IMG/VR virus record: IMGVR_UViG_3300046028_005277
Direction: 5' to 3' (one strand)
From: a virus
DNA: 64,000 nt
The translations under genes and the position numbers were made by a program. Shown here piece after piece: positions 31,509-43,327 of the stretch; position 1 is the stretch's first letter; the number at the start of each line of letters is the position of its first letter. The notes beneath the pieces were generated by a model. The model was not told the DNA's origin. It worked only from the letters and a program-made list of their open reading frames with translations, and searched no databases.

Positions 31509-32231
31509 TTAGTGCTGTAATATCCAAACAGACTTTTGTCCTTTGCCTTGCAATCCTGAGCAAAGCCCGCACTTTGAGCATGTTGACTTAAAGCCGGCCT
31601 CTTCTGATGCGGGACAATTTACAAGCCCTGGAATACCTTGCTTTGTGGCAACAAATGACCTCCAACCTTGCTTTTTAGCAAATTCCGCTTGTGATTCATT
31701 ATGTACAGATGCCATCAAAAAGGCTGAATATTCGGGCTTGCGAAGCCATTGGTGAGTATAGCCTGTCCAATTTTTGGCTTGCAAAGTAATGGAAGACATC
31801 AATTCCAATGGAATTAAGGAAGGTTCGCCATATGTGCCAAATCTGACATAAAGCCCATTGCAAGCGGAAACTATTTGCTGAATGATTTCTGAATTCAATT
31901 CGGGGATTTCATCCCATGTTGCGCTTAATCTGACAGAACGCAAAGAGGACAAAAAGCCTGAATACTGCATCATTTTATGAGTATAGCAAGCCGATAACTT
32001 TGCGCCATTAGAAACGGCAAAAGGACAATCGAAACAGACAGAACCATCTAAGGCAAAAAACGCTTGCATGGTTATTTTTTCGCCCGAATTGGCTAGGTCA
32101 AATTGTTCCTTGCTGAAATGATATGTTTGAACAATCTTTTCGTTTTTGCTAGCAATTTTTTCATTACTAGTGCTGTCAATACGGAAAAGATGCAATACAT
32201 TTCCACTTTTGTAAATAATGCGCTTTTTCAT
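31509..32231 (-). CDS. Cys-rich protein, phage Gp88-like (Fe-S/radical-SAM-like fold)
   Basis: CFDCPF...ACY; VRFGTYGEPS; WTGYTHQW; LMASV; CPAS...CSKCGLC. Confidence 0.55.
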   Translation of the reverse strand: MKKRIIYKSGNVLHLFRIDSTSNEKIASKNEKIVQTYHFSKEQFDLANSGEKITMQAFFALDGSVCFDCPFAVSNGAKLSACYTHKMMQYSGFLSSLRSVRLSATWDEIPELNSEIIQQIVSACNGLYVRFGTYGEPSLIPLELMSSITLQAKNWTGYTHQWLRKPEYSAFLMASVHNESQAEFAKKQGWRSFVATKQGIPGLVNCPASEEAGFKSTCSKCGLCSGLQGKGQKSVWILQH

Positions 32232-32771
32232 TTTGTTGTTTGGTTTGTTGTAACTGATGCAATGATAAAAGGTATTAATTTCATGGAAAGCGTTTTTTAG
32301 ACAGATGGCAGAAATACCGGTATGAATGGAATTATTTAAACGATGAATGGAAAAGGAAAAGGTGGAAAAAGCTTCGTGCGTATGTGCGTATATGAGAAAC
32401 CTTGCATCCAGGGTGAATGATAAGCGGAAAAAATCGGGATGGGAAAACCTCTTATAACTTGACTCCGTTACGCAAGTGTTTCAGGTTTCAGGTTTGCCTT
32501 TTGAATGTTAACCATCCAACACAAACAACACAAAGGATAAGCGTAAAAGGTTTCTGCTTTGCGCCTTTCTTAGAAAGGTTTCTGTTTAGTGGTTAACCTT
32601 GAAGGGATCAATCCTTTTAAGGTTTCTGTTTGCCGTTTCCGTTTTTCGGTTTGTGTTGGTAGGTATGGCACTTATAAGGCAATGCATCAACAGAACCACG
32701 AAACAGAGCCACGGGTTCAAATGGTTTCGGTTTCGGGATGATCGTGATACCGGGGCCTGGGTAGGGGGTAG

Positions 32772-32829
32772 TCCTCATTTCGTTCATTCGTATTGACAAT
32801 TCCTCATTTCGTTCATTCGTGTTAACAAC
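32772..32829. repeat. Imperfect 29-nt tandem duplication in the non-coding divergence region
   Basis: TCCTCATTTCGTTCATTCGT at 32772-32791 and 32801-32820. Confidence 0.85.
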
Positions 32830-33204
32830 ATCCCTCCCTCCTCTTCATCTTGTCAGCATTCCGTTGGGGCGGGGATGTTGTAGATGTTCTTTGGAACAGA
32901 ATACTTAGGGGGGGGGTGTGTTTAACGATATTTCCGTTTAAAGTGTGTCAATTGGGACGGGGGGGTGTTAAAATGGAAACACCAAAAAAGGGGGCTGAAA
33001 AAGAGGGACTAAAAACGGCCATCAAAACAGCGTATTGTATTATTGTATATATATGGGAGCATTTGGTGTGTTTGTTTTTGTGTTGTAAGTGTGTGTGTTT
33101 TAGTGTTGTGTGAGTGTTTATGTTGTAATTCTTATGTAAAGTATTTTATACATTTATATGTGTGAGAGTGCTTAGTAATGTAAATTCTTTTTTACATTTG
33201 CTTT

Positions 33205-33660
33205 ATGAAGCGGAAGGGGAAGAAAGATGTGTTTGGGGGCAGTCCATTTTTGTCCAAGATGGAGTATAGGTATGTTGAGATGGGGGAGGGGGTGTTTTAT
33301 GAGCGTGTTTCCAATGTTCGTGTGTTTCTGGATTCCTTTTTGAATGAGGTTCGTGATGGGATGCCTTTGCGGAGCAAGGAGATGTTTATATGGCTTTTGG
33401 GGAGGGTGCGTAGTGGGGATGATTTGGTGGTGATAAACAGAAGGAAGTACATGGAGAAGATGGGCATAAAGAGTTTGCCCACAGTGAATGTTGCTATTAA
33501 TGGGCTTTTGTGGGCAGATGTCCTTGGGAAGTCAAATGTGAGGGGTGTGTATTTCATTAATCCTGTCCATTTATTTCGTGGGAGCAGGGTGAGGAAGTGG
33601 CCTAAGCAGAGTGCTAAATGGGAGAGCGTAAACAATTCAAATAATGACAGACATATTTAA
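33205..33660 (+). CDS. RepL-like (wHTH) replication/maintenance protein
   Basis: C-terminal GVYFINPVHLFRGSR matches the RepL-type YxxNP...GxR motif; TACATTTG -7 element at 33193-33200. Confidence 0.6.
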   Translation: MKRKGKKDVFGGSPFLSKMEYRYVEMGEGVFYERVSNVRVFLDSFLNEVRDGMPLRSKEMFIWLLGRVRSGDDLVVINRRKYMEKMGIKSLPTVNVAINGLLWADVLGKSNVRGVYFINPVHLFRGSRVRKWPKQSAKWESVNNSNNDRHI

Positions 33661-36062: not shown

Positions 36063-36102
36063 AAGGGGGCTTTTAGTTCCCTTTTTTCTTTTAGTATATT
36101 TG
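36063..36102 (+). promoter_or_regulatory. Terminator hairpin overlapping a -7 promoter element
   Basis: AAGGGGGC-TTTTA-GTTCCCTTTTTT, then TATATTTG at 36095-36102. Confidence 0.55.
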
Positions 36103-40065: not shown

Positions 40066-40098
40066 TTTGGAATTGTGAAATAACTTAGCCTATCTTTG
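40066..40098 (+). promoter_or_regulatory. Bacteroidota promoter
   Basis: TTTG-N21-TATCTTTG. Confidence 0.8.
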
Positions 40099-40102
40099 CA
40101 GA

Positions 40103-40208
40103 GCCGAAAGGCCGCTGGGTAGGAGCAGCGTTGTTTAAAACATTTCTTGTCCTTTGTCCGCTTAGTAAGGTCTCCTACCCTGAACGGCGAACAAAGGACA
40201 TTTTTTTT
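40103..40208 (+). ncRNA. Structured 5' leader RNA 1 (candidate kissing-loop attenuator)
   Basis: GCC-GAAA-GGC; CGCTG-[GGTAGGAG]-CAGCG; TGTCCTTTGT...ACAAAGGACA-T8 stem enclosing CTCCTACC. Confidence 0.6.
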
Positions 40209-40219
40209 AACAAAATTTT

Positions 40220-40435
40220 ATGAAGAATAATAACATCACAACAAAAATGTCTCACAACATTCACGATGAAAATGGAGAGTTAACTTATGAGATTGAAATG
40301 AGTAAAGAACATAAATCCATGTTTATTGAAGTTAAAATGCAGGATTGTTTTACTGGGCAGACAATGGTTGTAAAAATTCCATATTGGCCTATAAAAATGT
40401 TTATGAAGGCGGTGAACAAAATTCATTCAGCTTGA
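40220..40435 (+). CDS. Hypothetical protein
   Basis: 71 aa between the two leaders. Confidence 0.55.
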   Translation: MKNNNITTKMSHNIHDENGELTYEIEMSKEHKSMFIEVKMQDCFTGQTMVVKIPYWPIKMFMKAVNKIHSA

Positions 40436-40463
40436 TTTTTATTAAAAAAGTATAGTAAATTTG
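40431..40463 (+). promoter_or_regulatory. Bacteroidota promoter
   Basis: CTTG-N21-TAAATTTG. Confidence 0.7.
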
Positions 40464-40467
40464 TATT

Positions 40468-40596
40468 GGCGAAAGCCCCCGCTTGGAACCGGGAAAAAAT
40501 TATTATGGAAAATCTTAAACAAGCCCCTCTCGGCGTACCTGTGCAGTTTGTAATTTCTGCGTTCCAAACAGGGAAACCGAGAGGGGTTTTTGTTTT
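40468..40596 (+). ncRNA. Structured 5' leader RNA 2 (candidate kissing-loop attenuator)
   Basis: GGC-GAAA-GCC; CCCG-[CTTGGAAC]-CGGG; AAGCCCCTCTCGG...CCGAGAGGGGTTT stem enclosing GTTCCAA. Confidence 0.6.
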
Positions 40597-41385
40597 ATGA
40601 AAGAGCGTGATTCTATGATCTTGTACAGAAGTTTTTATGAGGCAATTATTGAATTGCCAGAAGCTAATCAGCTTGAAATTATGAAGGCCATATTTGAATA
40701 TGGATTCGATGGGGTTGAGCCAAAATTGTCTGGAATATCAAAAACAATATGGATTTTGATAAAGCCAAATATGGAAGCAAATCGAAGAAAGTGGGAGAAC
40801 GGATGCAAACCAAAACAGAAGCAAGTTGGAAGCAAAACAGAAGCAAACTTGGAGCAAGTTGAAAGCAAACCCGAAGGCAATGTATATGTAGATGTAGATG
40901 TAGAAGAAGATGTAGAAGAATACATTGGTAAAAAACCAAGCAAAAAGAAAGAAAGTAAAACATTTGTTGCTCCATCTTACGAAGAAGTGTTAGCCTACTT
41001 TGTTCAAAATGGTCAGCCGGAGGCTCAAGCCCGAAAGGCATTTGCTCATTACAACAATCACGATTGGATAGATAGCAAAGGTAACAAGGTGAAGAATTGG
41101 AAACAGAAGGTTCAGACTAATTGGTTTAAGGATGCTGATACCCCAGAGTTCAATCGTTCCATCAAAATGTCCAAGGAACAGGGTGATGCTCAAATGAACC
41201 GCTTTATTCAAAAAGGGTTCGATACACTTTCTGGAGAAGAGATTGAGTGGATTTATAATTGGCAACACAGAGATAGTTCGGCTTATATGCAATATCCAAA
41301 CGATATTCTACTAGCCGGAAGAACATCAAGGAAAACAAAGGGGCAGTGTGAAGCGGAAGATAGGAAAGCAGGATATGGATATTAA
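40597..41385 (+). CDS. Replication initiator (DUF6291-like N-terminus, lambda-O-like organisation)
   Basis: RDSMILYRSFYEAIIELP...IMKAIFEYGFDG; internal iterons; C-terminal PSYEEVLAYF...W.....KVKNWKQ. Confidence 0.75.
   Translation: MKERDSMILYRSFYEAIIELPEANQLEIMKAIFEYGFDGVEPKLSGISKTIWILIKPNMEANRRKWENGCKPKQKQVGSKTEANLEQVESKPEGNVYVDVDVEEDVEEYIGKKPSKKKESKTFVAPSYEEVLAYFVQNGQPEAQARKAFAHYNNHDWIDSKGNKVKNWKQKVQTNWFKDADTPEFNRSIKMSKEQGDAQMNRFIQKGFDTLSGEEIEWIYNWQHRDSSAYMQYPNDILLAGRTSRKTKGQCEAEDRKAGYGY
40811..40868 (+). repeat. Iteron array (probable origin of replication)
   Basis: AGCAA at 40820, 40831, 40842, 40853, 40864 (exact 11-bp period); CAAAACAGAAGCAA at 40811 and 40833. Confidence 0.7.
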
Positions 41386-43327
41386 GAAGTTTTCCGAAGT
41401 TCAGGCTATAGAGGGATTGCAGATAATTCCTGTTGATGGCAACAAAGTGCCAATTGCCAAAGATTGGCAGAAAGTAAAAACGCTATACGATTTTTCAAGG
41501 TTTCCAAGATTTGGCGGTATTGGTCTTGCTACCGGAAGCATCAGCGGAAATATTGAGGTAATAGACATTGACCAAAAGTATAGTCTTGATGGGAAACTTT
41601 TTGAAGAGTACAAAACTCTAATTGCAAAATCAAACAAGTCGCTTTTGTCAAAACTTGTTGTTAGTCGCACTCGTAGCGGTGGCTATCATTTTATTTACAA
41701 ATGTTCCGTGATTGAAGGGAATATTAAACTAGCAAGGCGTTTTACAACAGAAGAAGAAAGAGCCTCAAATTCTCACGATAAGGTGAGAGTTTTGATTGAG
41801 ACTCGTGGGGAAGGTGGTCAAATCGTGATTCCTCCAACGGAGGGTTATGAGATAATTTATGGATCTCTGTCTGATATTAAAACAATTTCTGTCGAAGAAA
41901 GGGATTTGTTATTTTTTTGTGCAAGGCAGTTAAACCAATATTTCCTTGTTGAACCGTCATTACCTCGGAGTCCAAAACCTCTGCCTTCCGCAGGGAGTGG
42001 CTTGTCTCCTGGGGATGACTATAACAACCGGGGAGATGTCTTGCAGTTGCTAGAATCTCATGGGTGGACTATTGTTGGCCAAAGCGGAAGTAAAATAAAT
42101 CTTAAAAGACCGGGCGATACCAATGCTGCAACTTCTGGGAACTACGATGAAGAGAAAGGTTGGTTTAGTGTATTTACTACATCAACAATATTTGAGCCTG
42201 AGAAAGCATACAGACCTTGGCATATTTTTACTTGGCTTGAATGCGATGGAGATTATGTTGAAGCTGCAAGAAAGCTAGGCGCAATGGGATATGGGGAGAA
42301 AAAGCCTGAGCCATCTGAGCAAATAATTAAACCATCATTTACTCACTCTGAGGGGAGAAAGCCGATTGATACGGAAACACTTTCGTTTCTTTCCAAAGAG
42401 GAAGATATTGATAATTATTTTCGCTCTGTTGTGGATGGGAGTTTTAAGATGGGTCTTCCAACTGGGTTTCCCGAATTGGATAAATACTTCCTTTTCAAAC
42501 AAGGCAATCTTGTGATTGTAAATGGCCATGCGAATGTTGGAAAAACCGTAGTTCTTTGGTATTTGTCTATGCTCACTGCTATTCAGCACAAATGGAAGTG
42601 GGTAATGCTTTGTTCAGAAAACTCGGCTGGAGGTATGAGAACAAAAATGGTTGAATATTATTGGAGCAGACCAATTCGTTTTCAATCTCCTGAACAACGG
42701 AAGGAAGCATACGAGTTTGTCAAAAACCATTTTTTCATCATTGACAATACCGAAAGCTATAATTACACTCAAGTTTTGGAAATGTTTTCTGCCGTTCATG
42801 CCAAGCACAATGTTCAAGGAGTTTTAATTGACACTTACAATAGTCTTGATGTTCCCGCCAAAGATGCTTACCAATACCATTATAGCACACTTAATGCTTT
42901 GCGTTATTGGGCAAAAGCAAACAAGGTAAGTGTTTATGTAAATGCCCACCCAGGAACAGGAGCAATGCGAATGAAAGATGCAGATGGATTTCCACTAGCT
43001 CCATTGATGGCTGATACGGAGCAGGGGAGTATGTTTGCTGCAAAAGCTGATGACTTTATTACCATCCATCGCAGACCTAATCATCCTGAAAAATGGAAAG
43101 AAACGGAAATTCATATCAGAAAAATTAAAGAAACCGAAACCGGTGGAAGACCTTCTCCATTTGAAGAGCCGTTTGTATTTCAGATGCATGATGGGTGTGG
43201 ATTTGCAACACTTCAAGGATTTAATCCTATTGCGAAATTGCGTAATACATCTCCCATTCCACAAGAAGAGCCAAAAAGTATAATAAATACAAAGTCTGGA
43301 TTTAATTTTGATGAAGCTCCATTCTGA
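41375..43327 (+). CDS. Bifunctional primase-polymerase fused to DnaB-like helicase
   Basis: GIGLATG...VIDID, TRSGGYHFIY (Prim-Pol); Walker A GHANVGKT, Walker B-like VLIDTYN. Confidence 0.85.
   Translation: MDIKKFSEVQAIEGLQIIPVDGNKVPIAKDWQKVKTLYDFSRFPRFGGIGLATGSISGNIEVIDIDQKYSLDGKLFEEYKTLIAKSNKSLLSKLVVSRTRSGGYHFIYKCSVIEGNIKLARRFTTEEERASNSHDKVRVLIETRGEGGQIVIPPTEGYEIIYGSLSDIKTISVEERDLLFFCARQLNQYFLVEPSLPRSPKPLPSAGSGLSPGDDYNNRGDVLQLLESHGWTIVGQSGSKINLKRPGDTNAATSGNYDEEKGWFSVFTTSTIFEPEKAYRPWHIFTWLECDGDYVEAARKLGAMGYGEKKPEPSEQIIKPSFTHSEGRKPIDTETLSFLSKEEDIDNYFRSVVDGSFKMGLPTGFPELDKYFLFKQGNLVIVNGHANVGKTVVLWYLSMLTAIQHKWKWVMLCSENSAGGMRTKMVEYYWSRPIRFQSPEQRKEAYEFVKNHFFIIDNTESYNYTQVLEMFSAVHAKHNVQGVLIDTYNSLDVPAKDAYQYHYSTLNALRYWAKANKVSVYVNAHPGTGAMRMKDADGFPLAPLMADTEQGSMFAAKADDFITIHRRPNHPEKWKETEIHIRKIKETETGGRPSPFEEPFVFQMHDGCGFATLQGFNPIAKLRNTSPIPQEEPKSIINTKSGFNFDEAPF

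Follow-up and report, generated by a model that had tools for sequence, protein, structure and literature searches.

A 64-kb stretch of DNA from a lake-water phage (hereafter the window) carries, directly 5' of its replication genes, a leader on the plus strand (leader 2, 40468-40596) that is almost certainly a real structured RNA element. Judged by its sequence, this leader probably attenuates transcription. As a tentative reading of how it might be controlled, we propose a cis-acting attenuator that would head the replication operon and be relieved by the ribosome. The features of leader 2, its neighbours and two related leaders from cultured phages are collected in Table 1.

Table 1. Coordinates of leader 2, its neighbours in the window and related leaders in cultured phages.
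Feature	Position	Strand	Basis or remark
Leader 1: promoter, two hairpins, key 40118-40125, lock in the apical loop of the terminator	40091-40219	+	sequence, scan, pairing
Promoter element, Bacteroidota-type -7 (TAnnTTTG)	40456-40463	+	sequence; 3-4 nt spacing to hairpin 1 in relatives
Hairpin 1 (HP1): 3-bp stem, GAAA loop, RNA 5' end	40468-40477	+	fold; 100% paired in relatives
Hairpin 2 (HP2): 4-bp stem, 8-nt key loop 40482-40489	40478-40493	+	fold and covariation
Pseudoknot 2 (PK2), 5' strand, pairs with 40550-40556 in the P5 loop	40497-40503	+	covariation
Leader ORF: 31 codons and TGA	40505-40600	+	frame open in 25/25 distinct relatives
Terminator stem, 5' strand (13 bp with 40577-40589)	40521-40533	+	98.9% paired, 4 pairs changed on both sides
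Internal loop, 5' side (xGUA), faces GAAA 40573-40576	40534-40537	+	alignments
P4, 5' strand (pairs with 40568-40572)	40538-40542	+	4/5 pairs changed on both sides
P5 mini hairpin: 4-bp stem, 10-nt loop; 40550-40556 is the PK2 3' strand	40543-40560	+	fold and covariation
Lock: 7 nt complementary to the key loop (pseudoknot 1, PK1), between P5 and the P4 3' strand	40561-40567	+	covariation
P4, 3' strand	40568-40572	+	fold and covariation
Internal loop, 3' side (GAAA)	40573-40576	+	alignments
Terminator stem, 3' strand	40577-40589	+	fold, energy, covariation
U tract of the predicted intrinsic terminator, abuts the gene ATG at 40597	40587-40596	+	sequence
DUF6291 protein gene, 262 aa	40597-41385	+	annotation search
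PrimPol-DnaB helicase gene, next downstream	41348-43327	+	annotation search
Related leader, Flavobacterium phage vB_FspS_morran9-1 (MN812219.1)	L247 672-815
Related leader, vB_FspP_elemoA_1-9A (MT497075.1)	L248 about 640-765

The promoter element stops 4 nt upstream of HP1, so that the RNA probably begins at or next to this hairpin. Among relatives, the middle pair of HP1 varies (GC, CG or UA), as does its loop (GAAA, UUAG, UUAC, AGUA or AUCA). In the key loop of HP2, positions 2-3 are an invariant UU followed by a purine in all leader-2-type relatives; with its first U unpaired, this sequence pattern suggests compatibility with a U-turn. An A-rich linker joins HP2 to the terminator stem, whose 13 bp consist of ten G-C-rich pairs, one G-U pair and two A-U pairs that borrow the first U's of the tract. 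The base of this hairpin lies 7 nt upstream of the U-rich gene start. Within the hairpin, the GUA and GAA of the internal loop were invariant in two alignments of relatives and may form a candidate loop-E-like motif.

Relatives were gathered with an alignment of the DUF6291 protein, which yielded 80 viral and 80 metagenome loci. Many of these loci carry a key-lock leader directly before the DUF6291 gene, each with a matching key and lock. The leader-2 type comprises 25 distinct sequences in five key classes; near-copies of leader 2 are present in three viral contigs, in which the flanks diverge. Three further types were distinguished: the leader-1 type, which in several phages stands directly before the DUF6291 ATG; type B, with a linear 5' key and no 5' hairpins; and type C, with one large-loop hairpin kissing the apical loop of the terminator. 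Across all leader types the G+C-rich hairpin base is flush with the U tract, and in relatives the T tract ends 4-10 nt before the start codon. A model built on the leader-2 type (R1) misses leader 1 in the window and sees type-1 and type-B relatives weakly (E 0.005-0.8); we therefore claim one architecture and not one alignable family. That the leader is tied to DUF6291 genes everywhere was rejected, as only 4/74 of the homologues in cellular genomes, mostly located in Clostridia and Bacteroidales prophages, had a leader, which is near background.

The database matches, which are weak, point to Flavobacterium phages. No cultured phage was found to have the leader-2 type itself. A related leader precedes the replication module in cultured Baltic Flavobacterium phages; it has a single 5' hairpin, and 7-8 nt in the apical portion of its terminator hairpin match the loop of that 5' hairpin. 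In morran9-1, the annotated 47-aa CDS gp042 that overlaps this RNA is probably a miscall. A literature search on DUF6291, phage kissing-loop terminator leaders and small RNAs of Flavobacterium phages found no description.

The nested part of the leader-2 fold was recovered by RNAfold (z -2.9). For the terminator hairpin alone, we obtained -34.2 kcal/mol (z -4.6), and none of 200 shuffled sequences was as good. Based on sequence and energy, this hairpin, with its G+C-rich base flush with the U tract, is predicted to be a strong intrinsic terminator before the first gene. Covariation was assessed in two alignments of the leader-2 type, one made with MAFFT (21 leaders) and one model-based (25 distinct leaders). 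Seven helices were retained in the 25 distinct leaders, with 96.9% of cells paired and 27/40 pairs changed on both sides. Taken over both alignments, 96-97% of cells were paired, 26-27/40 pairs were double-changed and 0/500 shuffles were as good, while slid controls for the seven-helix structure reached 33-51%. PK1, the pairing of loop and target, was 99.3% paired with 4/6 pairs double-changed in the 25 leaders (99-100% paired across both alignments), and all five pairs of the P5 stem had changed on both sides. For PK2 the corresponding values were ~95% (94.7%) and 6/6 pairs; the PK2 of leader 2 itself consists of A-U and G-U pairs only, is weak (-2.2 kcal/mol) and is invariant among its three near-identical copies. 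Together, the sequence, the nested RNAfold structure and the covariation of the 25 leaders confirmed the hairpins, key, lock and terminator stem where a preliminary description of this DNA had placed them; PK2 and the leader ORF were both absent from that description.

The length of the linker fits the coexistence of all helices. With the lock placed immediately between P5 and the 3' strand of P4, stacking of the key helix with P5, P4 and the terminator stem is feasible, and as far as the sequence indicates these elements could form one long rod. A pairing of the terminator 3' arm with the region of hairpins 1 and 2 was not adopted, because the complementary letters are lost in relatives. We also rejected the idea that the key-lock columns evolve faster than other helices; the address columns vary no more than the rest. 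The same data bear on the assumption of a DNA-level element, such as a replication origin or inverted repeats bound by an initiator. Its position beside the replication genes and its inverted repeats would suit such an element, but the covariation of the pseudoknots, the fixed phase of the promoter and the U tract fit RNA and not duplex DNA, which makes this explanation extremely improbable.

Searching the 64-kb window against Rfam 15 gave no match at the gathering score, and around both leaders chance-level matches were the only ones at E up to 10. Likewise, no match fell on the leaders of 20 related loci. In one of the gathered loci (L074, 1498-1530), the Rfam motif DUF805b scored above the gathering threshold (42.8 bits), ~1 kb upstream of the DUF6291 gene. 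Leader 2 thus appears as an uncatalogued structured leader, plausibly, as read from its sequence, a variant of known attenuator and leader-coupling mechanisms.

A strict architecture scan (small hairpin, adjacent hairpin, a complement of at least 7 nt to the loop 20-120 nt downstream, T run) of both strands of the window returned leaders 1 and 2 only. Leader 1 has no leader ORF and no second pseudoknot, lacks the inner P4/P5 pair as well, and carries its lock in the apical loop. The preliminary description had held that every pairing is kept between the two leaders: this is true of the pairing between loop and target, but P4 and P5 are absent from leader 1 and its target is apical. Its proposal of a lock-and-key pairing proved to be real and under selection, as cognate PK1 pairings comprised on average 7.4 contiguous bp compared to 3.6 between different key classes. 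The two leaders of the window are also orthogonal, as had been suggested, with 8 and 7 bp in the cognate and 4 and 3 bp in the crossed combinations (about -13.5 and -8.5 versus -3.6 and -3.3 kcal/mol; -8.5 kcal/mol is the free-duplex energy of the leader-2 key and lock). Both end in a strong terminator-like hairpin and stand in series ahead of the replication genes, as the earlier account had it; related contigs retain this arrangement. Its further claim that lock and key gate the replication genes held only in part. The pairing exists; however, it does not compete with the terminator stem and by itself therefore fails to explain gating.

Across the 25 leaders, five key classes and nine P5-loop classes are combined in reshuffled ways, and every class is matched by a partner of its own. 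One leader (L097, 141-278) has the key of one class and the lock of another, with a single mismatch in the kissing helix, and may be a recent recombinant between address classes.

Short addresses that differ between relatives are also found in the CI RNA of phage P4 (seqB with seqA and seqC) and in c4 of P1/P7, where the complementary sequences confer specificity and, as in leader 2, key and targets are part of the same early replication or immunity transcript. These RNAs undergo processing and target nascent transcripts in trans, whereas the key-lock pairing of leader 2 is intramolecular, around a terminator. By analogy with them, the product of leader 2 could be a terminated, stable small RNA of ~130 nt whose address acts in trans in immunity or incompatibility. 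The leader has its own promoter and terminator, its 5'-terminal hairpin and clamped fold should resist RNases, and several address classes occur on similar scaffolds, including the L097 leader with key and lock of different classes and one mismatch. We nevertheless consider a trans-acting RNA improbable: key and lock are paired within the molecule, so that neither is free for pairing in trans; the address columns are no more variable than other helices; the terminator always abuts the start codon, which points to cis control; and leader 2 matched neither the C4 family of Rfam nor CI RNA.

The leader ORF traverses both arms of the terminator, and its TGA overlaps the ATG of the DUF6291 gene (ATGA). 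In all 25 distinct relatives, the leader AUG is present and frame 0 is free of stops, while the other frames hold 1-3 stops in most. The distance from AUG to AUG is 92 nt in 22/25 and the ATGA overlap is found in 18/25; this spacing is preserved although the window subtype carries indels of +3, -2 and -1 compared to the rest. Even the three exceptions in spacing still read through the terminator, one of them (L106) fusing in frame with the gene. In that locus (1340-1475), the leader AUG is 90 nt from the gene AUG without an intervening stop, and translation from it would yield a DUF6291 protein with an N-terminal extension. The peptide sequence is not conserved and contains no codon run, so the act of translation and not its product would matter. 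An open frame alone is weak evidence, since the sequences are related and G+C-rich stems rarely hold stops. The +2 frame, too, crosses the hairpin without a stop in the window subtype.

PK2 joins the linker hexamer just 5' of this conserved AUG to the P5 loop. Its end lies 0-2 nt from the leader AUG in 25/25 leaders (1-2 nt in leader 2). A comparable position is seen in the type-B leaders (27 distinct), in nearly all of which a pseudoknot of 8-11 bp ends 0-1 nt from a conserved AUG; their leader ORF mostly stops inside the hairpin, and in one type-B relative (L058) AUA replaces AUG. PK2 and the 31-codon ORF together make the ribosome the most likely agent of relief. The conserved linker of the AUGAAAA type could instead be a strand engaged in an RNA tertiary contact and not a start site. 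A conserved leader ORF in leader-1-type RNAs was rejected because start codons and frames are inconsistent.

The mechanism that we propose builds on an RNA of ~130 nt that starts from a host-type promoter and whose conserved fold is a long intrinsic-terminator hairpin, with its top clamped to the 5' part of the RNA by PK1 and PK2. As the terminator stem does not compete with the pseudoknots and the linker accommodates coexisting helices, we read the complete fold as the OFF state, in which polymerase would stop at the U tract and the start of the leader ORF would be buried. About 45-90 nt are transcribed until the fold is completed, and a ribosome that loads on the leader AUG in this interval would block PK2 and sit over the terminator's 5' arm, so that polymerase would read through. 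The same ribosome would re-initiate at the ATGA overlap on the DUF6291 gene, whose own U-rich start context looks poor from its sequence. The output of the replication genes would in this way track how fast host ribosomes engage the nascent leader, and distinct keys would keep tandem leaders from misfolding with each other. Against a ribosome as the agent speaks the narrow opportunity for its action, only about 60-90 nt of transcription unless polymerase pauses. Moreover, neither pseudoknot competes with the stem of the terminator, so that their part in the decision is a presumed one.

The closest precedent for relief by a ribosome is found in Escherichia coli. In pyrBI (and pyrE), an intrinsic terminator located inside a leader ORF is suppressed by a closely following ribosome, as described in PMC4824070 (citing Roland, Liu and Turnbough 1988). 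That intrinsic terminators are suppressed when a ribosome is close behind is an established physical principle. Leader 2 likewise has a terminator between promoter and gene, as predicted from sequence and energy, and a leader ORF running through it. Both leaders place a promoter-proximal terminator inside a short leader ORF (96 nt in leader 2, 135 bp in pyrBI), and neither would need an alternative antiterminator hairpin, because the ribosome itself blocks the hairpin. Unlike pyrBI, leader 2 has two covarying pseudoknots, which tie the terminator down to the 5' region and border on the leader AUG; its ORF stops on the start codon of the gene, and UTP-sensing logic is not evident. It also belongs to a phage replication operon in a Bacteroidota host that does not use Shine-Dalgarno sequences. 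An attenuator of the trp type was rejected: when partial transcripts were folded, the 5' arm of the terminator had no conserved pairing partner, and the leader peptide is unconserved and without a codon run.

Leader-peptide coupling combined with a hairpin-loop pseudoknot and an antisense RNA is known from plasmid replication genes, namely repY-repZ of ColIb-P9 (IncI-alpha), repBA of the IncB plasmid pMU720 and tap-repA of R1 (PMC8053102; Asano and Mizobuchi 1998; Praszkier and Pittard 2002). Leader 2 resembles these systems in that the stop of the leader ORF overlaps the start of a replication gene (ATGA in the window and 18/25 relatives), an upstream hairpin loop pairs with a downstream site of the same leader (PK1) and a stable structure lies beside the rep start. 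It differs in lacking an antisense promoter, in having a canonical predicted intrinsic terminator as the downstream structure and in the position of the lock, which is 30-36 nt upstream of the ATG in the apical domain and not beside the ribosome-binding site. Its second pseudoknot is too near the leader AUG to act as an activator, and there is no sequence or Rfam relationship.

Following this plasmid precedent (PMC8053102), leader 2 might be a purely translational gate as in the IncI-alpha, IncB and R1 rep genes. The hairpin would hide the gene start, translation of the leader ORF would open it and couple to the gene, the loop-target pseudoknot would tune this coupling, and termination would be minor in vivo. 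A leader ORF ending in ATGA on a rep-type gene, a hairpin loop complementary to a downstream site with covariation, and a hairpin base 7 nt from a U-rich start are all in keeping with such a gate. We still regard it as distinctly unlikely, given that the hairpin bears every mark of an intrinsic terminator in all leader types, that the antisense promoter is absent, that the lock belongs to the apical domain, ~30 nt ahead of the start, and does not adjoin the ribosome-binding region, and that the plasmid pseudoknot families of Rfam gave no match.

Relief by the ribosome cannot hold for the whole family, since leader 1 and other relatives in the same position have no conserved ORF. Such leaders need another form of relief, which keeps alive both antitermination and a constitutive throttle as explanations. 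In the former, leader 2 would be the recognition site or promoter-proximal terminator for a phage protein or a modified polymerase, by analogy with lambda N at nut or Q at PR'-tR', and the ORF would be incidental. As in the lambdoid arrangements (PR'-6S RNA-tR' with Q, and nut with N), an efficient terminator lies within about 130-200 nt downstream of a strong promoter and has to be overcome if the genes beyond it are to be expressed. The existence of ORF-less relatives in the same position (leader-1 type, type C), the strong predicted terminator directly after the promoter, and a conserved fold with an invariant internal loop that could serve as a protein-binding platform all agree with antitermination. 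The lambdoid systems, however, need neither a conserved pseudoknotted RNA nor a leader ORF, and antitermination leaves the conserved AUG, the 92-nt spacing and the pseudoknot abutting the AUG unexplained.

The preliminary description had named a phage factor or an antisense RNA as possible agents of relief, and neither gained support. Pfam and PHROG searches of 31.5-44.5 kb recognised no N-, Q- or NusG-like protein, which is weak evidence because most early ORFs are unannotated. Overall, we consider antitermination by a phage factor unlikely, while allowing it some weight. On the minus strand, no TAnnTTTG element was found within 40400-40800, the nearest being at 41083; in the absence of such a promoter element in or near leader 2, no antisense RNA is indicated, and this candidate was rejected. 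Further upstream, a divergent intergenic region (32231-33205) separates minus-strand genes, which extend up to 32231, from the plus-strand early genes and is probably the phage early control region. The first plus-strand block ends with a terminator-like hairpin at 36063-36083.

Identity profiles showed leaders 1 and 2 as conserved islands (76-100% identity) in three related contigs. In these contigs, the 71-aa gene between the leaders (40220-40435; flanks 40091-40219 and 40456-40596) is swapped for unrelated DNA. As conserved leaders surround a replaced gene, the promoter-leader units look like junctions of a swappable gene cassette. The promoter-early stem-loop (PeSL) cassettes of T4-type phages, which Arbiol et al. 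reportedly described in 2010, are said to flank small swappable genes in this manner, and the likeness lies in repeated promoter-plus-hairpin units around such genes. To our knowledge, PeSLs have neither covarying pseudoknots nor leader ORFs. Leader 2 might accordingly be thought of as a constitutive throttle and module boundary, in which a leaky terminator fixes a low level of the initiator and the unit serves as a recombination junction like the T4-type cassettes. The islands bracketing the replaced gene fit this idea, but two covarying pseudoknots and a preserved leader ORF would be superfluous in a simple throttle or junction, and we assign this idea a low probability.

Taking the attenuator relieved by the ribosome as the working model, leader 2 probably ties the expression of the replication genes, including the DUF6291 protein as the presumed replication organiser, to active translation, as far as can be read from its sequence. 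If the model is true, a modular RNA device of ~130 nt would unite an intrinsic terminator, addresses formed by kissing or pseudoknot pairing, and the coupling of a leader ORF to the start of the gene, three control principles that usually occur separately. This control would be exerted at the entry to phage DNA replication, in hosts without Shine-Dalgarno initiation. It is conceivable, though rather doubtful at this stage, that these leaders represent a new class of translation-sensing attenuators widespread in aquatic Bacteroidota phages, in which a terminator is clamped by one or two re-addressable pseudoknots, one of them on the start of a leader ORF. Should the working model hold, the catalogue of structured RNAs would gain a large family and synthetic biology a set of naturally orthogonal terminator switches. 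With related leaders present in cultured Baltic Flavobacterium phages, the question can be addressed at the bench. For the phages themselves, such a class would mean that the expression of replication genes depends on how soon ribosomes of the host load onto the nascent RNA, with tandem or co-infecting units insulated by their addresses; the working model, if it holds, would give direct access to the way in which replication is timed or throttled in uncultured freshwater Bacteroidota phages.
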